A stretch of DNA of 64,000 bases from a virus: IMG/VR virus record IMGVR_UViG_3300045988_119033. One strand, written 5' to 3'. Shown in pieces: positions 58-58,978 of this stretch; within the stretch, counting starts at the first letter, position 1; every line of letters starts with the position of its first letter. Below the pieces are notes generated by a model. That model was not told the origin of the DNA, did not search any database, and saw nothing but the letters and a program-made list of their open reading frames with translations. The position numbers and the translations under genes were made by a program.

Positions 58-3000
58 ATGGAGCACGTGTCTACCGACTATTTATATACAACCGGAGGTG
101 AGAACCAAAATAAGTATTCTGTTCTATTCAATTATGATACAATGGATTCTTTATCTGAATGGATGGATAAAGCATTTTTTGGTGATAACGCGGGTGATGT
201 ATCCGGCGATGGCGAACGACATCTTTGTTCTGAATTTTATCCGTACTTACAGCCAGGAAGCATATTAAAGACCGTATCTGATGCTATATACGTTCTTGAT
301 ACTATGCCTTGTACATGTGGATGTTATATTGAAAATTATTGTTCGGATCCTACTGTTTCAAGGTCTGATTATAATAACTTTCAAAACAACAATTACATCC
401 TTGGAGGATATATTTTACATATAGATGGGTGGAGTCAAAAGATAAATGGAAAAGGTAATTGGAGGGCTGGTAGATCAACGAGTACGGTAATAAATGATCA
501 ATACCGGTCAAAGAACGGACCGAAATATTGCATTGAACAGTTCTGGCCTGATGCGTCCAACAAGCTCCAGGATATGATATACAAAAATTCGGACACCGGA
601 ATACCTGAAACCGATTGGGAATTTGAGGGATATGCAAATAATGCCACATTCGAAAATCCTACTGGAGATAAACTTAATATAGGATTTGCTTCTGAGTTTG
701 TAGTTCGTAAGTTCGTGAGGAATGTAATGACCAATGCCAGGTTTATTAGAATCAATAGACCGGAGGAATGGGATATAGAAGGATATAAGGAAGAAAATAA
801 GGTCCTTTATCTTGAAGCCCTTGGGAAGATAGATGGTATAATGGATGCTGTGTCTACCAATTACGTTCGTGTTTCTTTTTGGAAGGATATAGAGACATGG
901 AATCCACTTGGCACAATACCGGTAGATTTCGATAGGCCTGAACATGCTTCAGGACATTCGGTTATTATTAATATAGCAAGACCTGCATGGGGAACTATAG
1001 ATGATAAATTCTTTAAAGAAACGATAAAGCAAAATTATTTTTATGTAACAATAGAATCGCCGGTTGTAGCTGTTCCTTGGATAATGACATTCAGGAAAAT
1101 ACAATTCTGTGAATATAAGAATAAGGATACTCCAGACGAGGAGGAGGAACCAAGCAAGAAGCCGTCTCGTGCTATTTTAGGCGTTTCTTTTGTTACAGGT
1201 AAAACTATATATCCGTATATTTTTGGTATAAGAGAAAAGGAGGTAAATAAGATTGATTTGTCTGTGGATTCTATAACACTTAGATCAACTGTCTTATTTG
1301 CATCAAAATGTCAGACATGTGGAGATAGGCCCATCAATTGCAAGCCTCGTCCTTATAAATACGGGGATTTTGCATATTGGGAATCATCTGAGAAATATCC
1401 TGCTAATTTTGAACTTTATGATAGTAGCAGGATGAAAATAGACACAGGCAGATCTTATGATGATCCAAAAAAAACAGAAGCTTATTCTAATATTATGAAT
1501 AAGTTAACAGAATATTATGGTGCTCCTTTGTCAGACAAAAATGGATTATCTTATTTCAAGGGTCATTCTTATGGAGGGATAGATACTTCTACCATATTTT
1601 GTCAACAACCTATACGTCATTACCGGTTCCCAGATAATAAGCATATACCGTTCATGAACAGTGACGAACGTGGATATGACATAGCTTCTGAAATATATCC
1701 GGTAGGTATTATGGTAGATGAGAATACCATACAAGTGTTTTTGGATTTTGCAGTGGATTCTGGTTTGATTACGCAACAACAAAGAGACACGATTGTAGGA
1801 TATGAACTGTATCGTGGAGATAGGAGACTAAATAGGTCGGTTGTGGCTTCAGGATTAGCCTATGATATGCTTAGATACATAGGAGACGATGGTAATGTGA
1901 ATATCTATCCTAATTATCCATATAATGACCTGTCACAAGATCAATATAATTATACGTCTGGCAAAAGAGACGAGTTTATATCTCATCCTTTCGACAAAGG
2001 AGGAAACGTGTGGTATTCATTCTGTTCACCTGATATTTATTTCAACAAGCCAGAACTTCCAAATGAAGTATGTATAGACGGGTTTCAAAGAGGAATGTCT
2101 GTGGGCAGTTTCGTACCTGTAGAAGATCATCCAAAATGGACTATCTTAGGTCCTGCCGCATACACGATGGCTGCGTCGCTTGCCGCAGTTGAATCAAGTG
2201 CCACAATAGCGGCTATGATAGCAGAAGAGCTTCAGATAAGGGCGCAGTCTGGATACATAGGAGGGTCGGCCGGTCTTACCGGAGGAGGATTCCTGACTAA
2301 TTTAAGTGTGGCCATGCTGTTTTCTTCAATGGTGTCAACCATCAGCCAGACTCTTGCTAAAGGCCCGATATTGTACGGTAAATATCGTTATGATTGGCTT
2401 AATACGTTTATAAACAATGGACCAAGACGTAATCATGCATGGTATTATACTTCTGTGGGATTATATAATTCAATGATAGGCATAACAGATCAGGATAAGT
2501 ATGAACGAAATTTTGCCCGTGGTTTATCTTCTGTTAAGTACATTAAGTCTGGCGTATATCCGATGATGGATGCCAGTATGTCTTCTAAATGGGGAACCGG
2601 TAGAAATGATAATGAGGGACGTTTCTTATTCGTTAATAATATAGATCGTGAATCTTCGTTATTTTTATCATTTGGTGATCCAGGTGAAAAAGGAGATGGT
2701 AAATCGAAATATTTATTGGAATATCCGAACTATGTTTACAATTACGACAGTAGCCGCATAGATGATTCGGTTATTGCTGGAAGTGATGTTGTAGCAGGAA
2801 GAACATTCGAGCAATCCAAAACAGTATCGTACATCTGTTCTCCGTATATGAGACTTATGCGATATAGGCCGGATCAATATGGACAGATAGAAGATATAAA
2901 ATGGATTTCCATAGGTGGATGTGGATTTTTCACTAATGAAAAGAAACTGATGTTCGGTGGCGATACGGTAATAACAAGATTCTCATTAAAAAGAAAATTC

Positions 3001-4932
3001 CCTGTTTTTTATAATAGCGCTTTTGGTATTGGAGACATGATACCATTCCCATACATGGATTACAGAAATGTAGGGTATCCAAGATATTTTGTTAATTATG
3101 ATACTGGAGAAGACGCTCTTGAGACAATAGATAACGAACGTTTCAATAGCTGGACATCATCTAATAAAGGAAGATACGCTTTTTATCCAAACAGGAAGAG
3201 CTTATACGAATTAAATGGTGACACATCCGGCAGGTACGTTAATGGAAGATTTTATACATGGTTCTATGGCATTCCTCAGTTCCTTGTAGAGTCTGAAATA
3301 AATTGTAATTTCAGATTAGAGGGCCCTCAGCCTTATGAATTATTCTATCCAAAAGTAGGAGATTTTGTTTGGTGGACACAAGAAAAGAACGTATCTATCC
3401 ATAGGGATAATGATTACAAGATAAGTCCTATCTATTCGTCGAGGATGACACTAACACCAAATGTATTGCCGGCAACGTACGAACGACGTTTTTATGACTG
3501 TGCTTACCAACGTCCTAATGGTGTTATATGGAGTAGGGCTGATGTATCTGAAAACAGTCAAACAGATCCGTGGCTGACGTACAAGCCTATGGACTATCAT
3601 GAGTTCCCAACCAACAACGGGAAGCTTATTCACATGAAGCGTATTGAATCCGATCAGATTCTTGTTAGATTCGAGGATCAGGTTTCGCTCCATAACGCCA
3701 TAGACGTAATCAAGGAGCGTACCTCCCCAGGGCGGGCTGAGATGGGCACCGGCGGTCTGTTCGCGTCCCGGCCTCTGGAGTACAACACGACCGACCTTGG
3801 CTATTCTGGAACCCAGAGTACTGAAATAATTAGTTCAGAATTTGGTCACTTCTGGGTGGATACTAAAAGAGCACAGGTGTTCATGACCGATCCAAATGGA
3901 CGCAATCTTAAGGAACTTAGTGTAGGTATCAGACATTGGCTTAAGCGTCATCTTCCGTTTAAGATCCTTAGATACGGAATAACTAATATCTTAACCGGTA
4001 CAGAGATGACAGAAGAAGATACAGACAATAAATTTATCGGTCTTGGTCTGTCTCTTGGATGGGATAACAGGTATAAGAGGGTACTTATCACGAAAAAAGA
4101 TTATATACCTGTTAAGAACCCGGCATATTATAAATATGATGGTGGAAGGTTCTTGTACAATGAAACAGAGGTGCTGTCAAACGATAAGAAAATATCTTTA
4201 AAAGACGAACAGTATTTCAAGGACGTGTCGTTCACTATCGGATATTCGTGTCTGAAACAAGAATGGATTTCTTATTATTCATTCTGTCCTGACTATTATA
4301 TAGAACAGCAACAATATTTCCAGACAGGAATAAACTTCCCGGCATCGGATGAAGAAGGTGGCTTATGGAGCCATTTGCTGACGAATAAGAGCTTTCAGAC
4401 ATTTTACGGAGCAACATATCCATTTATATTAGAAGTGCCGATAAAAGAGAAATATAACGGTTCTACGCTGGCTTCTGTTGAGTATGAGCTTGATGCGAGG
4501 AAATACGTCGATGATGTGAATTACACTCTTGACAGGAAAGTAGGTTTAGATACGATAACTATCTACAACGACACAAACAACTCAGGCGAAATTCATCTTG
4601 TTCCAGAAAAAAAGAATAATTTAGCGCAGCGTATATCGTATCCGAAGATCGTAGGCGACCATACTGAGATTCTGGATACCGAGGTATATAGAAGACATAA
4701 GTTAAACGACTTCTTTAATAGGGTTGACGATGACCGATCTGAAACACCTATCTGGATCAAGGACGATAACGATATAAATAAGTCGGTTAATCCTGATGCT
4801 CTTAATTTTAGACGGTCATGGCTTGATAGGTTAAGAGGAAGTTGGATGCTGATGAGGATAAAGAAAGTAATTAGCAACCGGAAGATTATATTCCAGTGGT
4901 TGATTTCTGAAGATAAGATTAAGAATAGATGA
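58..4932 (+). CDS. Giant virion-associated protein (1624 aa), possibly a tail fibre/spike-like structural protein; function not recognisable
   Basis: Uninterrupted 4.9 kb ORF in the plus-strand structural block, followed immediately by a Gly-rich fibre-like gene. No motif recognised. Confidence 0.45.
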   Translation: MEHVSTDYLYTTGGENQNKYSVLFNYDTMDSLSEWMDKAFFGDNAGDVSGDGERHLCSEFYPYLQPGSILKTVSDAIYVLDTMPCTCGCYIENYCSDPTVSRSDYNNFQNNNYILGGYILHIDGWSQKINGKGNWRAGRSTSTVINDQYRSKNGPKYCIEQFWPDASNKLQDMIYKNSDTGIPETDWEFEGYANNATFENPTGDKLNIGFASEFVVRKFVRNVMTNARFIRINRPEEWDIEGYKEENKVLYLEALGKIDGIMDAVSTNYVRVSFWKDIETWNPLGTIPVDFDRPEHASGHSVIINIARPAWGTIDDKFFKETIKQNYFYVTIESPVVAVPWIMTFRKIQFCEYKNKDTPDEEEEPSKKPSRAILGVSFVTGKTIYPYIFGIREKEVNKIDLSVDSITLRSTVLFASKCQTCGDRPINCKPRPYKYGDFAYWESSEKYPANFELYDSSRMKIDTGRSYDDPKKTEAYSNIMNKLTEYYGAPLSDKNGLSYFKGHSYGGIDTSTIFCQQPIRHYRFPDNKHIPFMNSDERGYDIASEIYPVGIMVDENTIQVFLDFAVDSGLITQQQRDTIVGYELYRGDRRLNRSVVASGLAYDMLRYIGDDGNVNIYPNYPYNDLSQDQYNYTSGKRDEFISHPFDKGGNVWYSFCSPDIYFNKPELPNEVCIDGFQRGMSVGSFVPVEDHPKWTILGPAAYTMAASLAAVESSATIAAMIAEELQIRAQSGYIGGSAGLTGGGFLTNLSVAMLFSSMVSTISQTLAKGPILYGKYRYDWLNTFINNGPRRNHAWYYTSVGLYNSMIGITDQDKYERNFARGLSSVKYIKSGVYPMMDASMSSKWGTGRNDNEGRFLFVNNIDRESSLFLSFGDPGEKGDGKSKYLLEYPNYVYNYDSSRIDDSVIAGSDVVAGRTFEQSKTVSYICSPYMRLMRYRPDQYGQIEDIKWISIGGCGFFTNEKKLMFGGDTVITRFSLKRKFPVFYNSAFGIGDMIPFPYMDYRNVGYPRYFVNYDTGEDALETIDNERFNSWTSSNKGRYAFYPNRKSLYELNGDTSGRYVNGRFYTWFYGIPQFLVESEINCNFRLEGPQPYELFYPKVGDFVWWTQEKNVSIHRDNDYKISPIYSSRMTLTPNVLPATYERRFYDCAYQRPNGVIWSRADVSENSQTDPWLTYKPMDYHEFPTNNGKLIHMKRIESDQILVRFEDQVSLHNAIDVIKERTSPGRAEMGTGGLFASRPLEYNTTDLGYSGTQSTEIISSEFGHFWVDTKRAQVFMTDPNGRNLKELSVGIRHWLKRHLPFKILRYGITNILTGTEMTEEDTDNKFIGLGLSLGWDNRYKRVLITKKDYIPVKNPAYYKYDGGRFLYNETEVLSNDKKISLKDEQYFKDVSFTIGYSCLKQEWISYYSFCPDYYIEQQQYFQTGINFPASDEEGGLWSHLLTNKSFQTFYGATYPFILEVPIKEKYNGSTLASVEYELDARKYVDDVNYTLDRKVGLDTITIYNDTNNSGEIHLVPEKKNNLAQRISYPKIVGDHTEILDTEVYRRHKLNDFFNRVDDDRSETPIWIKDDNDINKSVNPDALNFRRSWLDRLRGSWMLMRIKKVISNRKIIFQWLISEDKIKNR

Positions 4933-51825: not shown

Positions 51826-52140
51826 TTATTTTATATCAGTAATTAAAACATATCTTTCGACAATATCTTCAAGCTCCATAGAACATAACAAACTTGGGCT
51901 TTTTCCGTACTCGTACAGAGCGTACCCTTCCTTTATATCTAATATCTTGATTATATGCTTGCCTCTTTCAAATGGATCCATGAAGTAGCCTTTGTATTCG
52001 TATCTTTGACCTACTTTTATTTTGTCGGTTTTCTTCTTCATCTTATACCGATCTATCACTATGCTTATTTTTATAAGAATCGTTACAAACAGGTATAATA
52101 ATAAAAAGACCGCTGCTCCTGTTATCAATGCTTCTTTCAT
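51826..52140 (-). CDS. Small membrane protein (104 aa; N-terminal TM helix)
   Basis: AVFLLLYLFVTILIKISIVI. Confidence 0.4.
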   Translation of the reverse strand: MKEALITGAAVFLLLYLFVTILIKISIVIDRYKMKKKTDKIKVGQRYEYKGYFMDPFERGKHIIKILDIKEGYALYEYGKSPSLLCSMELEDIVERYVLITDIK

Positions 52141-52306
52141 TGTATTTATTTTAAATAGTTAAACCAAATAGCCTCAAGTTTCTCCTGGAACTCAAACGCC
52201 TTTTTAAAATTTCCGCACCGTACCGCCACGTTCCTCATCTCTTCAAGATATATAACTTCCGGATCTTGCCGGTATTTTGTTCTTAACTTTTGAACGTCCT
52301 CGTATT

Positions 52307-53326
52307 TCATCGTTTTATCTTTTTAGACGGATCCCAATCTGAAGAGAAAGGGCATTCGTTTTTGTTATGTAATCCAAAGTCACAATAATAACACAGTGCC
52401 GACGGGCAGGGCAGCTTGTTTTGCGAAACATGCTGGCTTAGGGTGGCACGCCGCTTGCTATATCTGGCCCCTTCTGCTCCCTGGATGTATGCTTGAAATG
52501 CTTTTACACTATTATCTTCAAAATCATACATTTTAGATAAAGTGTCATTTAGCATCTCTATAGATTTTGTTTTACGTTCCTCATCTACCTTAACCTTTTG
52601 GTACTGCCTGGTTCTGGTAAAGAAATAGATGTTCATATCTGGTAGAACCCCACCATATCTTCTATAGATGTAAAACGAATATATAGGATGCTGTAAATTT
52701 GTTTCCAGCTTCTTAGAATCAAAAACCTTATTTCCCGATTTCCAATCTATGACATAATGATGGATCACTCCTTTGCTTTTTATAGCCAGATGAAGGTCTA
52801 CCGACCCCACTATATACACATGAGTATGAACGGTCCCATTTATATCAACTGGCTTAGGAAGACGGTACGGCAGCACAAAATCTTCTTCGACTCCAACTAT
52901 AGCGCCGTGTCTGATAAGTTTCTCGCAGGGATTAAGATCACTATCAGCTATCATAAACCTATTGCCGTCTTTTTTGAACAGATCCACAATCCAAGCAAGA
53001 AGCTCTCCAGATTGCTTCATGGCTATCATCATATTTTCCGGTGATTGCCAAGGTATGTCTTCTTGGTAAGCATAGTAACTTATAGCTTCCCCCAGGTCTT
53101 TGCCAGAAGGCTGTCTTCCGTTCTTGAAGAAGTATTCCAGTGTCTTATGAATAACCGTACCATAAGACGTAGCTTCTTGTTTTTCCGTAGACCTTTTGCC
53201 CTCCACGTAAGTTTTATACCATTTCATTGGACAAGTAAGAAACGTATCTATCTGGGAATAAGATATGGCAAGACGTTTCACACCATTAAACTCCTTATAT
53301 AGCAAATGCGTTTCCGGGACCATCAT
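52307..53326 (-). CDS. Cas4/RecB-like PD-(D/E)xK nuclease with a C-terminal Cys cluster
   Basis: The N-terminus YSQIDTFLTCPMKWY is typical of the PDDEXK_1 family. The C-terminus has CPSALCYYC...ECPF. Confidence 0.55.
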   Translation of the reverse strand: MMVPETHLLYKEFNGVKRLAISYSQIDTFLTCPMKWYKTYVEGKRSTEKQEATSYGTVIHKTLEYFFKNGRQPSGKDLGEAISYYAYQEDIPWQSPENMMIAMKQSGELLAWIVDLFKKDGNRFMIADSDLNPCEKLIRHGAIVGVEEDFVLPYRLPKPVDINGTVHTHVYIVGSVDLHLAIKSKGVIHHYVIDWKSGNKVFDSKKLETNLQHPIYSFYIYRRYGGVLPDMNIYFFTRTRQYQKVKVDEERKTKSIEMLNDTLSKMYDFEDNSVKAFQAYIQGAEGARYSKRRATLSQHVSQNKLPCPSALCYYCDFGLHNKNECPFSSDWDPSKKIKR

Positions 53327-53682
53327 AAGTCATTGTCTTTAAATCCTTCCGGGTAATATACGACATACTTCTTACCGTCTTCTGGTGTCATGGCAAACTG
53401 CATGTAGTTATTACGATTACGATGCTTGCCATCCAATCCTCGTTTCCAATACAGGATACCGTCTATATCCACATAAGATCGGCCGCGGTCGGCTCTAACC
53501 ACGTCCGTGTGTAGCAGATACCCGTCGGAAGACACAATCCACACTTTATCCCCTTTGCTTAAATAAGATATTCTTTTTCTTACAACAACCCTTTTCTTAT
53601 TATCCAATACAAATTCCTCGTCAGTCATACTCTTCATCCTCCTCTTCTTCTGTTTCAAAATCAATTCCATAATACTGATCAT
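53323..53682 (-). CDS. Hypothetical protein (119 aa)
   Basis: ORF. Confidence 0.4.
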   Translation of the reverse strand: MISIMELILKQKKRRMKSMTDEEFVLDNKKRVVVRKRISYLSKGDKVWIVSSDGYLLHTDVVRADRGRSYVDIDGILYWKRGLDGKHRNRNNYMQFAMTPEDGKKYVVYYPEGFKDNDL

Positions 53683-53835
53683 AATGCTTGGTCAGTTCTT
53701 CTGGTTCTAAATCTTGTCCAAAATCCATGTTAAAAATATCGTAATTAGTAAAGCACTGTTCCTGCCGGCAGGAAATCTATGAATGCTGCTTTTATTTCTT
53801 CAATTAGGCCCAAGTGTAACCTTGGGCCATTGTAT

Positions 53836-55536
53836 TTATTTTTTGTCATCTCCTTTTAGCTTCTTTAAAGTATCTGCAATCGGAAGCTGATCAATGACTC
53901 CCAATGCCGGAGCGACGGTCTTAACAACATTGTTAAGGAAATTACCGGTACTGTTCTGACCGCCGTCAAATACCGTGATATTTCCGAGGTTAATGTGCTC
54001 AAATGCCTTAACCTGTTCTCCAGCAATTTCTTTCCACTGATTAACCATCTTGTACTGGATGGCTATCTGAGGATTGGATTCTGCTGCTTCCACCATAGCC
54101 TTAAATCCCTCTGCTTCTGCCATCAACGACTTTTTCTTACCTTCGGCTTCTGCTTCCAACTTCATCTTAATAGCCTTTGCTTCGGCTTCTGCTTTTGCCA
54201 AATTGGCTGCTGCTTCAGCGGCAGCCCGGCGTTTAATCTTTTCTGCTTCAGCATCAGCTTGCAAAATAGCTTCTTGCTTCTGGGTTTCAGCCGGCACAAT
54301 CTTTTCAGCTCGAAGCGCAGCTTGAACTTTCTCAGCCTTAGCCTCTTCCACTTCTTTATCAGCAAGCTCTTTTGCCGTTTTTACAGCCGCTTCCGACTTA
54401 ACCCTCTCTTCTCCAGCCTTCTTTTCTGATTGAGCTTTGATAACCTGTAATTCTGATTCTGATATAGCAACCTCTTTCTGGGCATTGTTATAACCCACAG
54501 ATGCGTTTTTCTCAGCTTCAGCTTTCTTGATCTGAGCTTCGGAATCTTGGATTGCTATAGCTGCTTGTTTATCAGCCTCAGCCTTATTCTTTCCGACTTC
54601 TTCCATTCTTTCAGCCTCAGCTTTGTTTACCTCAAGTTCTGCCTTAGATCTTGCAATCGCCGATTCTTTGTCAGCCAAAGTCTTTGCAATAACCGCAGCC
54701 CTATCTCTATCGGCTTGAGCTACACCGATCTGTTTTTCTTTATCGGTTAAAGCCAAAGCTACTTCTTTTTCTTTCTTTGTTTCAGCTACTACCGTTTCCT
54801 TTTCTTTTTCAGTATAGGCAATTTGAATCTCTTGCTCTTTTTGGGTATTAGCTACAGCCGTTTCTTTTTCCTTTTGCTGTACAGCAATCTTAATAGCACC
54901 CAGCTTTTCCTGTTCTTCGATATTAGCCTGTGCTTCGTTCAGGGCCTTACTTTCAGCTTCTTTGCCAAGATTCATGATATAGCCGGCTTCGTCTCTGATG
55001 TCACTGATGTTGATATTTAGGAGGTAAAGGCCTAACTTATTAAGTTCGTTATCAATGTTTTTTCTTGCCTTATCCAAAAACTCATCCCTGTCAGAATTAA
55101 GTTTTTCAATCGTCATTTCAGCAATGATCAAACGCATTTGGCCATAAACGATATCCGTAATAAGATTTTCAGTAGATTCAGTATCCATCCCCAAAAGCCT
55201 TTCTGCTGCATTCTGCATAATTTCAGGATTTGTGCTGATTGCTACTGTAATAGTAGTAGGTACATCCACTCTGATATTTTGAGACGACAAAGCACCGGTG
55301 AGCCTACAATCTATTTGCATAGGCTCCATAGACAAAATATCATAGCTTTGAATAATAGGCAAGACGAATGCCGCTCCACCATGATATAATTTCGCCGATT
55401 TCTTTTCCCCACCTGTCTTACCATAAACGACCAAGACTTGATTAGGCTTACATCTACGATACCTTGATAAGACTCCGATGATTGTCAAAATAATCACTAC
55501 AGCTAAAATAGCTGACACGTACATGATTGTTGTCAT
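53836..55536 (-). CDS. floT: Flotillin (FloT/YuaG-like SPFH/band-7 protein with EA-repeat coiled coil)
   Basis: N-terminal TM helix, then an SPFH core (KPNQVLVVYGKTGG, GGAAFVLPIIQSYDILS, ISDIRDEAGYIMNLGKEAESKA) that aligns closely with B. subtilis FloT. Long Glu/Ala/Lys-rich repeats follow. Confidence 0.8.
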   Translation of the reverse strand: MTTIMYVSAILAVVIILTIIGVLSRYRRCKPNQVLVVYGKTGGEKKSAKLYHGGAAFVLPIIQSYDILSMEPMQIDCRLTGALSSQNIRVDVPTTITVAISTNPEIMQNAAERLLGMDTESTENLITDIVYGQMRLIIAEMTIEKLNSDRDEFLDKARKNIDNELNKLGLYLLNINISDIRDEAGYIMNLGKEAESKALNEAQANIEEQEKLGAIKIAVQQKEKETAVANTQKEQEIQIAYTEKEKETVVAETKKEKEVALALTDKEKQIGVAQADRDRAAVIAKTLADKESAIARSKAELEVNKAEAERMEEVGKNKAEADKQAAIAIQDSEAQIKKAEAEKNASVGYNNAQKEVAISESELQVIKAQSEKKAGEERVKSEAAVKTAKELADKEVEEAKAEKVQAALRAEKIVPAETQKQEAILQADAEAEKIKRRAAAEAAANLAKAEAEAKAIKMKLEAEAEGKKKSLMAEAEGFKAMVEAAESNPQIAIQYKMVNQWKEIAGEQVKAFEHINLGNITVFDGGQNSTGNFLNNVVKTVAPALGVIDQLPIADTLKKLKGDDKK

Positions 55537-55567
55537 AACTTTTAAAATTTAATTGTTGATAAAAAAA

Positions 55568-56062
55568 TTAGATACTTAATTCTCCTTCTTCGTATTTTAT
55601 ATTCACCTTGTCACCGTTTTTGTAATTTTTTCCAGACAAGCACCTCACTCTCATCTGTTCCTGTCTTCCATTTTTAGAAATATTTACCATATAATGATTC
55701 TTACCTGATCTAAATACTATCTCCACCTCTCTGCCATTTAAATCTTCCGGACATTCGTACACCATTTCTTGTTTTAACTTAAGAAGTAACTTATATACGT
55801 AAAACAAAACGATAAAGAAAAATGACCCTATTACGACCCCTACTAAATGGGAACCCGAAAAGTATGTGGTCCAGCTATATCCAAGAATAAAATGTGTTAT
55901 GCCCTTGAATGATATGATGTCCGACAAAGACATGCTTAAATCAGAAGCGCTGTTAATGTCAATATCCGTATCCAGATCAGATCCTAATATCGATAACAAA
56001 AACTGTATAACAAAAGCAAATGACGCTATTAAAGCCATGCATAAAATTATATCACTTCCCAT
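55568..56062 (-). CDS. NfeD-family membrane protein (flotillin partner; TM helices plus C-terminal OB-fold)
   Basis: Three hydrophobic helices followed by the beta-rich GREVEIVF...GDKVNIKYEEGELSI. Sits immediately upstream of the flotillin gene, as in the floT-nfeD and yqiK-yqiJ operons. Confidence 0.6.
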   Translation of the reverse strand: MGSDIILCMALIASFAFVIQFLLSILGSDLDTDIDINSASDLSMSLSDIISFKGITHFILGYSWTTYFSGSHLVGVVIGSFFFIVLFYVYKLLLKLKQEMVYECPEDLNGREVEIVFRSGKNHYMVNISKNGRQEQMRVRCLSGKNYKNGDKVNIKYEEGELSI

Positions 56063-56303
56063 ATCCTTCTGTTATTATTTTGTAAACAAGATCAGTCATT
56101 TCTTTGATGGATTCTGTATAATAATCAATAATAACAATATTGAATTTTTGTTCCACCATCACATCAAGCTCAACTTTATCAATAGAATCTAATCCAAGTT
56201 CTTCAAACGACACATCTTCTTCATGAATCATATCCATTTCCGAATGAAGAAACTGAGTAATAATCATATCCTCTATGATCTTTCTGATTTCTACTTTTTC
56301 CAT
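56052..56303 (-). CDS. acpP: Acyl carrier protein
   Basis: 83 aa. SFEELGLDSIDKVEL aligns with the ACP phosphopantetheine-attachment motif (DSL) and helix II. Confidence 0.7.
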   Translation of the reverse strand: MEKVEIRKIIEDMIITQFLHSEMDMIHEEDVSFEELGLDSIDKVELDVMVEQKFNIVIIDYYTESIKEMTDLVYKIITEGYGK

Positions 56304-57004
56304 TGCTTTCTAATTTTATTAAATAAATACGTTTTTATGTTTTTCAACCTCTCTTTGTCTGTTTCCGAACTTCCGGTAAACAAATAATCCGGATTTCCTT
56401 TAGCCGGCGGCGTAGGCAATTTAGATACGGCAAACAACCAATCCATTTCCTTATTCTTCTTAGACTCCAAATAAGGCTCGGTAGCGATCTTAAATTTTTC
56501 AGCTATTAAGTCAAAGAGCTTTGAGTTTTTAAGGTTCATATGGACTGAAAAAGCCTGAGAAGGCGGTTTCCATATGAAGTTACATAAGCTCATTGTGTAA
56601 TCTCCTGACTCTGCTATATAAGATTCTGTTACCTGAAGTATGACCTCTTTCTTAAATGAGGTGTTACCCATAAACCAACACAATCTGGATTCCGCTTCTT
56701 TTCTGCTGACACCTATGTCTTTTGAATATGATTCGTACATTCCTATCATAATCTTCAACGTTTCCAGAACCTCGTCCGTCATTTCCGGTGTCTCTATATA
56801 ATTCACAAAAGACGTTCCTTTGTTGGTTAATCTCATCACGCCTGATTTTAATTTCTCAACCAGGCCAAGCTCTATATACCTCCCAGCATCTTCTTCCGGC
56901 ATGGCTTCGATCATAACCGAATCCTTCTGTCTTATGGCAAGAAGATTAGCGAGATCATTAGGAGTCATGTCTGATGCTGCAAGTTGTCTGAAATTGATGT
57001 ACAT
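56291..57004 (-). CDS. Hypothetical protein (237 aa) in the same operon as the ACP
   Basis: ORF overlapping the ACP start. Confidence 0.45.
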   Translation of the reverse strand: MYINFRQLAASDMTPNDLANLLAIRQKDSVMIEAMPEEDAGRYIELGLVEKLKSGVMRLTNKGTSFVNYIETPEMTDEVLETLKIMIGMYESYSKDIGVSRKEAESRLCWFMGNTSFKKEVILQVTESYIAESGDYTMSLCNFIWKPPSQAFSVHMNLKNSKLFDLIAEKFKIATEPYLESKKNKEMDWLFAVSKLPTPPAKGNPDYLFTGSSETDKERLKNIKTYLFNKIRKQWKK

Positions 57005-57006
57005 GC

Positions 57007-57213
57007 CTAATCAGCTTTAATAAAAATAACATCCTTGTTATCCTCCCTCTCCGCGTGATTACACGGACCTGCAACCACACCCACTGCCCCGCATGTAAAG
57101 TAATTAAATATACATCCTTCACATCCTGCATCTGGTGCCGTAGGTTCTACGCATTTTAATCTCACAAGTCCGGCATCAAACACTTCTCCTATTTTAAATT
57201 CCTTCTTTTCCAT
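57007..57213 (-). CDS. Small Cys-rich protein (68 aa)
   Basis: Five Cys: CVEP...CEGC...C...C. Confidence 0.4.
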   Translation of the reverse strand: MEKKEFKIGEVFDAGLVRLKCVEPTAPDAGCEGCIFNYFTCGAVGVVAGPCNHAEREDNKDVIFIKAD

Positions 57214-57228
57214 ATTTCCTCCTTGTTT

Positions 57229-57831
57229 TTAACTGTTGTATCCTTCTTTGATAATCGAATTTCTACCGGTAGATACCGACTGTCGAAGATCGTCATGTAC
57301 AGAATCTACCGTAGAATACTTGTTTCTGGTTGTAAAAATCACTTCCAGCATCTCCTTGTAATCACCTAAAGCCACTTCGTATCTTGGATCCACTTTGGCT
57401 TTTCTTTCAGCCTCGGCATTACTTTTAGCCAGCTCTCGGTCGAGAAGATCTTCTTTGATTCGGTCAGCAATCATATCAAGCTCTTTTTTGATTACTTCGC
57501 CGGCTGCCCGAAGTTGACCTTCTACGTCACCAAGCTGATCTTGGACGGTTCCTATTTCTTTCTTTAAACGATCGTATTCGTTAATCATACCCATATCACC
57601 TGCATAGCCGGAAAAGTCCTTGATTATTCTGGTTCCTTCTTTAAGGAGCTCAATAACTCGTCTTTTGCGTTCTCTGCTTATTAAAGACGGAAGACGATAA
57701 TTCATATCCGCCACCGCCTTGTCGTGTATGGAGTTGATTAAAAACATCTCTCTTTCATCCCCTGCGAACTCAGTAAGAACCAAAAGGAACTTACTTATCA
57801 GGTATTCGTTTTCTTCTACGGTAAGTCTCAT
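57229..57831 (-). CDS. Hypothetical coiled-coil protein (200 aa)
   Basis: ORF. Confidence 0.45.
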   Translation of the reverse strand: MRLTVEENEYLISKFLLVLTEFAGDEREMFLINSIHDKAVADMNYRLPSLISRERKRRVIELLKEGTRIIKDFSGYAGDMGMINEYDRLKKEIGTVQDQLGDVEGQLRAAGEVIKKELDMIADRIKEDLLDRELAKSNAEAERKAKVDPRYEVALGDYKEMLEVIFTTRNKYSTVDSVHDDLRQSVSTGRNSIIKEGYNS

Positions 57832-57844
57832 ACGTTTCTTTTTT

Positions 57845-58978
57845 TTAATATACTGACTGTTCTTCCTTTACCTCTTGTTCTTGATCTTGATTGTTCGTAA
57901 CGTCTTCCACAGTATAGAGCTTGGGCGGCGTCGGCGGCTGGTTGGGGTTCACGAACTTCGTCCCTCCCTCCCCGTACATCCATCCATGCCCCGGCAGGAT
58001 CTCTGGGTGGATTGTATTAGTAAGCTCTTCCATACTAACTTGCCTTACCTTCAGTATATGATGAAACACCAGTCCGGCTGTCCTGAATGATGTTTTGTTT
58101 TCAGTTTTAAACCGGTCAAGAGTCTGATACCAATCTTTCCCAAATATCATATACTTATCCAGTCCGTATCTGCGAGGATTATGCAAGCCTATCATTAACG
58201 TACATAACTGACCCAGCGTATCAGATTGGTAAAAATCAGAAAGACGCGGAGGCTGCTCTTGAGGGCTTTTTATCCTTCCTTCTATCTCTCTGTTGAATTG
58301 GGATATGATGAGGAAAAATATGTTTTTATATACTAATTTAGCCTCGTTCATAACCGCCACCAAATCATCTATAGCCGACTTAGGATCCAATCCCATTCTT
58401 TTTATCAAAGCAATATGATCGACTTTAAATATTATAAGACGTTTGTCTTTATGCTTAGTAGCTATATGATATACAGCCGCCTCAAACTCTTTTACCGTAC
58501 ACGGAGCGTCGATGTATATTATATTATTTCTGATTTCACCTTGAAGGATTTCAAACATCCTCATCTCTTCTACTGTATTAGAATCTTGCCTTCTTAATAT
58601 TTCAGGAGCCCGCTTTTTCATATCCTGACTCATTCTGCGAAGAAGAAGATCTTGAGGATTCATTTCGAACTCGCAATTGACAAGAAAATAATCTTCTGCT
58701 TGCGGGTTGATCATCGGATTCATCACATTTTCCAATATCTTTTGGGCCACATACGATTTACCTACAGATGGCCGGGCTCCTATGGCAATAGCGTGCTGAG
58801 GAAAAATACCTCCAAGCAAAGCCTCATCAATATAATCGTATCCGGTTTTAGCGGGGATAAGCTCTCCCCGCCTGTATTTCAAAATATTCTCATACGCCTC
58901 TTCCATAACCTGTTTAGAGGTCTTGAATATCCTTCTTATGTCTATCCTATTTGCTATCTCCTCGTGCATTTTTGTCAC
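57845..58978 (-). CDS. DnaB-like helicase, C-terminal (RecA-fold) domain
   Basis: Walker A GARPSVGKS and overall DnaB_C-like layout. At 377 aa it is too short to include the N-terminal DnaB domain. Confidence 0.6.
   Translation of the reverse strand: MTKMHEEIANRIDIRRIFKTSKQVMEEAYENILKYRRGELIPAKTGYDYIDEALLGGIFPQHAIAIGARPSVGKSYVAQKILENVMNPMINPQAEDYFLVNCEFEMNPQDLLLRRMSQDMKKRAPEILRRQDSNTVEEMRMFEILQGEIRNNIIYIDAPCTVKEFEAAVYHIATKHKDKRLIIFKVDHIALIKRMGLDPKSAIDDLVAVMNEAKLVYKNIFFLIISQFNREIEGRIKSPQEQPPRLSDFYQSDTLGQLCTLMIGLHNPRRYGLDKYMIFGKDWYQTLDRFKTENKTSFRTAGLVFHHILKVRQVSMEELTNTIHPEILPGHGWMYGEGGTKFVNPNQPPTPPKLYTVEDVTNNQDQEQEVKEEQSVY

Follow-up and report, generated by a model that had tools for sequence, protein, structure and literature searches.

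Two adjacent genes in the DNA of an uncultured phage probably represent a complete host flotillin operon, comprising an NfeD-like protein with transmembrane (TM) and OB-fold parts followed by a flotillin of FloT architecture, that was captured by the phage and has since occupied a constant position within its replication block. During infection the pair would most likely serve to remodel or stabilise the inner membrane of the host, with a benefit that depends on conditions, which places it among accessory functions of host takeover as opposed to core replication or assembly. We hold this explanation as a whole with good, though not full, confidence. The analysis is based on a stretch of 64,000 nucleotides (IMG/VR record IMGVR_UViG_3300045988_119033), referred to below as the window, and the features discussed are collected in Table 1.

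Table 1. Features of the flotillin region, in coordinates of the window.
Feature	Position	Strand	Description
Phage flotillin gene	53836..55536	(-)	566 aa plus stop codon; an ORF with exactly these coordinates
Flotillin N-terminal hydrophobic membrane anchor, aa 1-29	55450..55536	(-)	Sequence read directly: MTTIMYVSAILAVVIILTIIGVLSRYRRCK
SPFH/Band_7 domain, aa 30-211	54904..55449	(-)	Pfam PF01145, E 2.5e-25
E/A/K-rich coiled-coil region, aa 212-449	54190..54903	(-)	Composition; length-polymorphic in natural populations
Flot C-terminal domain, aa 450-566	53839..54189	(-)	Pfam PF15975, E 1.6e-9
NfeD-like flotillin partner gene	55568..56062	(-)	164 aa plus stop codon; an ORF with exactly these coordinates; three TM helices, acidic DxDxDxD loop, C-terminal OB barrel
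Partner OB-fold (NfeD-like) domain, aa 109-164	55571..55738	(-)	Predicted structure; structural and profile matches
Acyl carrier protein (ACP) gene	56052..56303	(-)	PP-binding, E 7.6e-5; phrog_5934; NCBIfam ACP models
Perfect 8-bp GC-rich hairpin	53807..53828		8 nt downstream of the flotillin stop codon; lacks a U-tract

The larger gene encodes a flotillin-family protein

A sequence-only reading of the window, made without database searches, had taken the larger open reading frame (ORF) for a flotillin. This assignment was correct, as the membrane anchor, the SPFH/Band_7 domain, the E/A/K-rich coil and the Flot domain are all present. The 566-aa protein scored above the gathering cutoffs of two of the Pfam models that had been proposed as a check, with 90 bits for Band_7 (PF01145, cutoff 23.6, residues 30-211) and 38.3 bits for Flot (PF15975, cutoff 27, residues 450-559). 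By inspection of the sequence, residues 5-24 are uniformly hydrophobic and form the anchor. The coiled coil rich in E and A that had been pointed out corresponds to residues 212-449, where E, A, K and Q together account for 62% of the residues and a single proline occurs.

The resemblance to Bacillus subtilis FloT that had also been claimed holds for the architecture and not for orthology. The NCBIfam FloT equivalog model (NF058507) aligned to residues 9-276 with 148 bits, compared to a cutoff of 700, so the phage protein, judged by its sequence, is FloT-like in its architecture and a member of the flotillin family, but not an ortholog of FloT. The yuaF-floT operon of B. subtilis (NfeD2/YuaF plus FloT) is very distant in sequence, and the phage partner family differs from it in having conserved TM motifs of its own.

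The annotation as a flotillin is already found in GenBank and IMG, but the gene has never been discussed; for example, WOZ57345.1 of phage crAssE-Sib, annotated as a "flotillin family protein", is 95.9% identical to the phage flotillin. Our analysis therefore adds context to a known gene and does not describe a new kind of system. Searches of the literature for phage-encoded flotillin, for flotillin together with crAss, and for SPFH/NfeD proteins in phages found no study of this gene, nor did the searched literature yield a study of the function of flotillin or its operon in Bacteroidales. The nearest report concerns a phage that integrates into floA and is unrelated.

The pair derives from a Bacteroidales operon

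The earlier reading had suggested comparing the gene with flotillins of the host group, and an origin in the Bacteroidales was confirmed. The best 80 of 324 genome matches to the flotillin were all from Bacteroidales (62-67% identity), and in a neighbour-joining tree with one partial outgroup the phage clade forms a single long branch beside the Bacteroidales clade. Chromosomal operons of Bacteroides, Parabacteroides, Phocaeicola and Prevotella contain the same two genes in the same order, on the same strand and with the same domain architecture, with a gene for a small TM+OB protein ahead of one for a flotillin of ~524-612 aa. The gap between the two host genes is typically ~20-25 nt, while 31 nt separate the phage partner ORF from the flotillin gene downstream of it on the same strand.

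Host partners were recovered from the flanks of the loci found with the flotillin alignment, and the partner family was present directly upstream in 79 of these 80 loci, indicating that both genes were captured together as a complete host operon. Judged by the neighbour-joining tree, the capture was apparently single and ancient. The surroundings of the genes differ between phage and host: the two host loci examined lie among housekeeping genes (e.g., TruA, YbeY and MnmG), whereas the phage pair lies among replication genes and next to an ACP gene.

The phage flotillin has diverged to different degrees along its length. Identity to the host flotillins, which are 83-95% identical to each other across genera, is 59% in the anchor, ~80% in the SPFH domain (compared to 96-97% among host genera), 54-57% in the coil, where the phage protein has 33 extra residues, and 74-80% in the Flot C-terminal domain. 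The phage partner is 29-41% identical to the host partners. These values bear on an alternative in which the phage flotillin builds no separate scaffold and instead co-assembles with the rings of the host flotillin, hijacking or poisoning them in a dominant-negative or re-targeting manner. Such mixing would be helped by the fairly close relationship of the domains for SPFH packing and oligomerisation to their host counterparts, and every likely host genus has a flotillin operon of its own, which would bring the two proteins together in one membrane. However, the phage retains its own strongly diverged partner, and its coil has both diverged and gained an insertion. Since partner and coil have diverged, an orthogonal, self-contained pair fits better than mixing with host subunits, and we regard co-assembly as unlikely.

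The smaller gene encodes an NfeD-like flotillin partner

The ORF upstream of the flotillin gene had been read as its NfeD partner. What stands of this claim is that the protein is a TM+OB operon partner of the NfeD type; what does not is a match to the Pfam NfeD model. In the predicted structure (pLDDT 89 for the TM+OB model), N-terminal TM helices are followed by a C-terminal OB-type beta-barrel of the five- or six-stranded form, with six strands predicted within residues 112-163 at a pLDDT of ~97. The sharing of an operon with an SPFH gene, which serves as a criterion for short NfeD proteins, was seen in the window, in the Bacteroidales loci and in IMG/VR, where an intact partner is encoded directly upstream of flotillin in 80 of the 80 loci kept, as well as in a distant pair of such genes.

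Pfam NfeD (PF01957) did not match the 164-aa protein even at E<=10, and only 2 of the 83 members of the partner family matched it (best E 6e-5). The earlier reading had treated failure of this search as evidence against the assignment. As a refutation it is weak, however, because the canonical YuaF also falls below the cutoff of the model (18.8 bits, cutoff 29.1). The NCBIfam matches of the small ORF were all below threshold and no more than noise, and neither YqiJ_N (PF21001) nor YqiJ_OB (PF07290) was among the Pfam families matched by the 83 family members.

Profile and structure comparisons pointed towards NfeD. Using hhalign, the partner-family profile aligned to a YuaF mini-alignment over the whole OB domain (65 columns, E 1.2e-5) with a probability of 81%, the usual standard being 95%. 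The NfeD reference profile in this comparison was thin, as the search with the YuaF OB fragment yielded only six near-identical Bacillus fragments. When the 83-sequence family profile was run against 177,635 PDB sequences with hmmsearch, YuaF was the top match (E 0.032). This larger profile was needed to reach YuaF; Cas12f, which was the PDB match of a profile built from five close homologs, was rejected as a chance hit. In BFVD, a full-length homolog with 34% identity to the partner bears the UniProt name "NfeD-like C-terminal domain-containing protein", and the best structural match among NfeD domains is PDB 3cp0, entitled [quoted passage not shown].

On the strength of the structure, the YuaF profile match and the gene neighbourhood, the small ORF is an NfeD-like flotillin partner, with a probable but remote homology to NfeD. 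It could instead belong to a separate family of flotillin-associated membrane proteins of Bacteroidales, with a generic OB barrel that merely resembles NfeD. This is rather improbable given the hhalign match over the entire OB domain, the first rank of YuaF in the PDB, the NfeD-like name of a full-length homolog, the sub-cutoff score of YuaF itself, and the combination of short-NfeD topology and operon position. An arrangement of this kind is also seen in the yqiJ-yqiK operon of Escherichia coli, in which a small inner-membrane OB-domain protein is encoded 26 nt upstream of a 553-aa flotillin-family protein with Band_7 and Flot domains. The proteins themselves differ: YqiK and the phage flotillin share only 24% identity, and the phage partner, which matches neither YqiJ model, aligned to YqiJ with a hhalign probability of 1.2%.

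Purifying selection and natural alleles

Purifying selection on the pair is as strong as on the neighbouring replication genes, with dN/dS values of 0.045-0.071 for the flotillin and 0.031 for the partner, compared to 0.044 for DnaB and 0.046 for the exonuclease. Knocked-out alleles also circulate. An allele with nonsense and frameshift mutations is represented by a cluster of 348 member sequences on at least 14 contigs, and an in-frame deletion that fuses partner and flotillin was found in contigs from three sequencing runs (one recorded in 7 samples). In addition, the coil has in-frame internal deletions in metagenomic alleles; Tandem Repeats Finder detected no repeat array that would explain this length polymorphism.

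The earlier reading had suggested that the phage might reorganise the host membrane to support replication or assembly, or else to exclude superinfecting phages, possibilities between which the sequence itself does not discriminate. The circulation of knocked-out alleles means that the pair is not essential for propagation, which speaks against a platform that replication or assembly would require. The pair acts as a conditionally dispensable accessory function, the benefit of which is not universal.

A proposed role at the host inner membrane

In the mechanism that we propose, the pair would be transcribed together with the replication genes during lytic growth. This step draws on gene packing and the shared strand only, because no transcription unit could be defined: scans for sigma-70 promoters, for intrinsic terminators and for TAnnTTTG, the -7 motif of Bacteroides, gave no more matches than expected by chance. 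The N-terminal anchor of the flotillin would insert in the cytoplasmic membrane, the coil and the C-terminal domain would drive its oligomerisation into SPFH assemblies, and the co-diverged partner would dock by its cytoplasmic OB domain. The predicted outcome is that a membrane scaffold specified by the phage exists beside the host version already present in the cell.

A more far-reaching proposal, to which we assign only a small chance, is that a widespread group of human-gut phages assembles, in the inner membrane of Bacteroidales, a flotillin cage orthogonal to that of the host, with an NfeD-like adaptor dedicated to it and a coil whose length varies naturally. Such a cage might organise a membrane-bound infection compartment, or it might steer the decision between lysis and persistence by way of a membrane protease or membrane-stress response under its control.

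By analogy with HflK/C, which cage FtsH and set the stability of lambda CII, the pair might also act by regulating a membrane protease, and thereby tune lysis-lysogeny or persistence in phages that are possibly temperate. Established background for this idea is that lambda CII is under the control of HflK/C-FtsH, that FtsH of B. subtilis is flotillin-dependent, and that the earliest link made for NfeD proteins was to the regulation of membrane proteases, the activity named in the title of 3cp0. A repressor and anti-repressors have also been reported for the crAssE-Sib genus (PMC11054128). The phage protein is, however, of the flotillin type and not of the HflK/C type, its partner is the short form without a protease domain, and no protease, CII-like or CIII-like gene was identified adjoining the pair. 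We consider protease regulation as the main role to be very improbable.

Genomic position and occurrence among phages

The 6-kb stretch compared, positions 52000-58000 of the window, is collinear with the complete genome of crAssE-Sib (OR575929), with 93.4% identity over 98% of its length. crAssE-Sib is an epsilon crAss-like phage (PMC11054128). The pair is flanked on both sides by genes for a DnaB-like helicase, a PD-(D/E)XK exonuclease and an SF2 helicase, as anticipated by the claim that it sits in a phage replication module. The gene order is identical in a second phage lineage, where the flotillin is just 83% identical. The concern raised beforehand that the region might be flanking host DNA is answered by the similarity to crAssE-Sib and by the phage genes on either side. 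The broader notion that the genes are host DNA (a prophage flank or an assembly chimera) or a decaying, functionless passenger can draw on their plainly host-derived nature and on the disabled and deleted alleles, but it is effectively refuted by a location interior to a complete 151-kb phage genome between replication genes, by flotillin at the same position in at least 173 IMG/VR viral contigs, by an identity to any host gene of at most 67% and by dN/dS values (0.03-0.07) equal to those of essential phage genes.

The ACP gene shares 11 nt at its 3' end with the start of the partner gene, and it evolves unusually fast. We rejected it as a part of the module because the neighbouring genes examined at two host loci included no ACP gene and its evolution is unlike that of the pair.

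Flotillins had been described as no standard phage replication function, and the database searches agree: only 9 of 50,697 phage records matched the flotillin by tblastn, three of these being larger than 100 kb, and neither protein matched a PHROGs family. PADLOC likewise gave no defence-system match for either protein. Among cultured phages, Vibrio phage KIT04 (Demerecviridae, LC487410) has an annotated flotillin family protein that is 29% identical over the SPFH domain and part of the coil (query residues 26-342). In contrast to the pair described here, neither NfeD nor any other Pfam domain could be recognised in the 82-aa ORF upstream of it, and the Flot C-terminal domain was not detected. 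Since this phage and its host are unrelated to ours, its flotillin represents an independent acquisition.

Implications for crAss-like phages

Flotillin/NfeD operons, which are membrane-organising modules of cells, are nearly absent from phages. In the crAss-like phage lineage described here, which is abundant in the human gut, the pair is complete, its two members have diverged together, and strong purifying selection maintains it. The phage evidently profits from altering the organisation of the Bacteroidales inner membrane. The analysis also defines a previously unannotated partner family of Bacteroidales (407 cluster representatives) that is NfeD-like and is missed by the Pfam NfeD model, and the alleles found in nature, from intact through coil-shortened and truncated to deleted, constitute a ready genetic resource on scaffold function. 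If the orthogonal cage were real, no SPFH scaffold encoded by a phage would have had a defined role before it, and the carrier-state or persistent lifestyle under discussion for crAss-like phages could become easier to explain.

A phage-encoded flotillin and its small partner

The ORF call places both reading frames on the minus strand where a sequence-only reading had put them, with 31 nt between them. The larger encodes a flotillin, as had been proposed: both the Pfam Band_7/SPFH domain (residues 30-211, 90 bits against a gathering score of 23.6) and the flotillin C-terminal domain, Flot (residues 450-559, 38.3 bits against 27), were recovered, with a hydrophobic anchor at residues 5-24. The claimed EA-repeat coil was also found, since E, A, K and Q make up 62% of residues 212-449, which contain only one proline. 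The likeness to FloT is one of architecture. The match to the NCBIfam FloT equivalog spans residues 9-276 and scores 148 bits, below the cutoff of 700; the phage protein is a flotillin but not a FloT ortholog. Promoter and terminator scans around the cassette gave nothing assignable. A perfect 8-bp GC-rich hairpin (GGCCCAAG-gttaca-CTTGGGCC), which begins 8 nt past the flotillin stop and has no U-tract, might serve as a transcript end or stabiliser.

Coordinates of the features in the window
Feature	Position	Strand	Remarks
Hairpin	53807-53828		
Flotillin ORF	53836-55536	-	566 aa; ORF call
Flotillin coil (length-polymorphic)	54190-54903		within flotillin ORF
Partner ORF	55568-56062	-	164 aa; ORF call
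ACP gene	56052-56303	-	11-nt overlap with partner gene start
237-aa protein	56291-57004	-	between DnaB and ACP
200-aa protein	57229-57831	-	between DnaB and ACP

For the small ORF, which had been read as NfeD, the proposed check against Pfam NfeD (PF01957) gave no match at E≤10, either for the protein itself or for its close homologs, and searches of NCBIfam, PHROGs and PADLOC returned nothing meaningful. The Pfam check is a weak test, because YuaF, the canonical FloT partner and a structurally defined NfeD (P0311, Bacillus YuaF-type), itself scores 18.8 bits against a PF01957 cutoff of 29.1; short flotillin-associated NfeDs, including the Bacteroidales family, are therefore largely invisible to this model. 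An exhaustive profile search recovered that family as a coherent set of 407 cluster representatives, mostly ~160-180 aa long, with three motifs conserved among the closest members: QFxLS in TM1, a DxDxDxD acidic loop and SFKGxxHFxxG in TM2. Pfam NfeD matches 2 of the 83 members aligned from it at E≤0.01. An AlphaFold2 model built on this 83-sequence alignment (pLDDT 89.1; ~97 in the C-terminal domain) is confident and has three TM helices, with residues 112-163 forming a six-stranded barrel. Among 177,635 PDB sequences, YuaF is the top match of the family profile (E 0.032), and hhalign, run with that profile and a small alignment of YuaF, pairs 65 columns of the OB domain at 81% probability (E 1.2e-5). 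BFVD holds a full-length homolog from a gut virome, 34% identical, named 'NfeD-like C-terminal domain-containing protein'. Identity with YqiJ was rejected, since none of the YqiJ families of E. coli is matched. We conclude that the small ORF encodes an NfeD-like flotillin partner: the TM-plus-OB topology and operon role are borne out, while the Pfam assignment fell and homology to NfeD is probable only.

The pair lies in a phage replication block

The complete 151-kb human gut genome of crAssE-Sib (deposited as csAssE-Sib, OR575929), an epsilon crAss-like phage of the proposed genus Epsilonunovirus (PMC11054128), is 93.4% identical to window positions 52000-58000 over 98% of the length. Its record labels the flotillin counterpart (WOZ57345.1) 'flotillin family protein', the small-ORF counterpart 'transmembrane protein' and the gene directly upstream of the latter 'acyl carrier protein' (ACP); the text of the accompanying paper nowhere mentions flotillin, NfeD or membranes (PMC11054128). 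The pair is flanked on one side by a DnaB-like helicase, a DUF3268 zinc-finger protein and a primase, and on the other by a PD-(D/E)XK exonuclease and an SF2 helicase, all closely packed and sharing one strand, in agreement with its proposed location in a phage replication module. In IMG/VR, 173 viral contigs encode a flotillin relative, and all 80 loci kept (≥96% identical) have an intact same-strand partner ORF. On these grounds the cassette DNA is that of a phage, and not flanking host DNA, the possibility raised against the original reading.

A second phage lineage, with a flotillin about 83% identical, has the same gene order as the window: DnaB, 200-aa protein, 237-aa protein, ACP, partner, flotillin, exonuclease, helicase. 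The 237-aa and 200-aa proteins, which matched no Pfam or PHROG family, are both strongly constrained (dN/dS 0.02-0.07 for the former) and syntenic with the cassette in both lineages. The ACP keeps the phosphopantetheine-site motif DS(I/L). Its identity with the crAssE-Sib ACP is only 80.7% (dN/dS ~0.8), against 98-99.6% for the flanking genes, and falls to 39.8% in the second lineage; the gene is either fast-evolving or recombined.

Host origin of the operon

Across 185,579 species-representative genomes we found 324 flotillin relatives, the best 80 of which all belong to the Bacteroidales (Bacteroides, Parabacteroides, Phocaeicola, Prevotella and relatives) and are 62-67% identical to the phage flotillin over nearly its full length, which confirms the Bacteroidales origin that had been put forward for checking. 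At 79 of these 80 loci a partner-family member ends just upstream on the same strand, typically with a gap of ~20-25 nt, and at the other the contig stops 50 nt upstream of the flotillin, so that a complete upstream ORF is not callable. The phage thus took up an entire operon from the host. Gene neighbourhoods were examined at two host loci: housekeeping genes surround the operon, TruA and EamA at the first and YbeY and MnmG at the second, and neither locus has an ACP among them.

Flotillins of different host genera are 83-95% identical (96-97% in the SPFH domain). The two sampled phage lineages share 83.6% identity, against about 68% with every host, and a neighbour-joining tree places them together on a single long branch next to the Bacteroidales clade. 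The partner evolves faster than flotillin everywhere (Bacteroides versus Prevotella, 44%; phage versus host, 29-41%). Given the exact gene order shared with the second phage lineage, the comparison points to a single old acquisition followed by divergence within the phage, a dating based on a simple neighbour-joining tree.

Some Bacteroidaceae MAGs appear to contain two flotillin operons, canonical and divergent, ~73% identical (P. vulgatus-type loci L141-L147 and L154 versus L150 and L112). The divergent type is that of Phocaeicola vulgatus ATCC 8482; it adjoins ybeY and mnmG, and its partner protein has the top score against the family profile.

Selection and natural alleles

Relative to crAssE-Sib, dN/dS is 0.045 for flotillin and 0.031 for the partner, and flotillin gives 0.071 against the second lineage. 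These values equal those of DnaB (0.044) and the exonuclease (0.046), and both genes are therefore under strong purifying selection.

Altered alleles nevertheless occur in natural populations. Several different in-frame coil deletions in metagenomes (P0145, P0148, P0149, P0153, P0154, P0157) give alleles of ~460-490 aa versus 566 aa, and no DNA tandem repeat accounts for this length polymorphism. In a widespread disabled allele, CAA(Gln426)->TAA and a 1-nt deletion ~40 nt downstream (L173/L174/L175, positions 2501-4200, equivalent to the window's flotillin ORF) split flotillin into ORFs of 425 aa and 109-121 aa, leaving the partner gene intact; this allele was read on 14 contigs, in both ENA and JGI samples, and 348 sequences belong to its protein cluster. 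At least five different large deletions (P0033, P0020, P0027, P0028, P0031) join the partner's TM half, in frame, to the C-terminal domain of flotillin, so that the OB domain, SPFH domain and coil are lost. One of these (P0033; L169-L171) is present with normal flanks on contigs of three sequencing runs, one contig being recorded in 7 samples.

Such alleles, beside purifying selection, show that the pair is beneficial but conditionally dispensable, as accessory or host-takeover genes typically are. This is hard to square with an obligatory form of the replication or assembly platform that was among the roles first suggested.

Possible function and relation to known systems

The sequence shows that the replication gene block encodes both a membrane-anchored flotillin and its cognate TM-plus-OB partner. 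By analogy with established flotillin/SPFH biology, the phage flotillin would oligomerise at the inner membrane, on the cytoplasmic side, where the OB domain of the partner would dock to it. The phage protein may co-assemble with host flotillin, and so hijack it, as identity with the host protein is still 74-81% in the SPFH and C-terminal domains. However, the phage keeps its own partner, which has diverged strongly, and the flotillin coil carries a 33-residue insertion; these features favour a self-contained scaffold alongside the host's own. Candidate purposes of the pair are to stabilise the membrane or control its fluidity during infection, to organise a membrane-bound process, to exclude other phages and, after the HflK/C-FtsH-CII example, to control a membrane protease.

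The closest known system is the Bacteroidales chromosomal flotillin operon, on the function of which the searched literature contained no paper; B. subtilis yuaF-floT and E. coli yqiJ-yqiK have the same architecture. Flotillins are rare in phages: only 9 of 50,697 phage records match, several being short unannotated fragments, and Vibrio phage KIT04 carries an independent annotated phage flotillin. Several phage-collection records matching flotillin or partner look bacterial, inflating the phage-flotillin count: MT836799 (L002) has MurA-like and GNAT-like ORFs, judged by eye, and the others are 1.5-20 kb fragments labelled as 'phage' of Enterococcus and Listeria. The flotillin label itself is already in GenBank and IMG for this gene; what is new here is the identity of the partner, the capture of both genes from the host as one operon, the selection data and the natural knock-out alleles.
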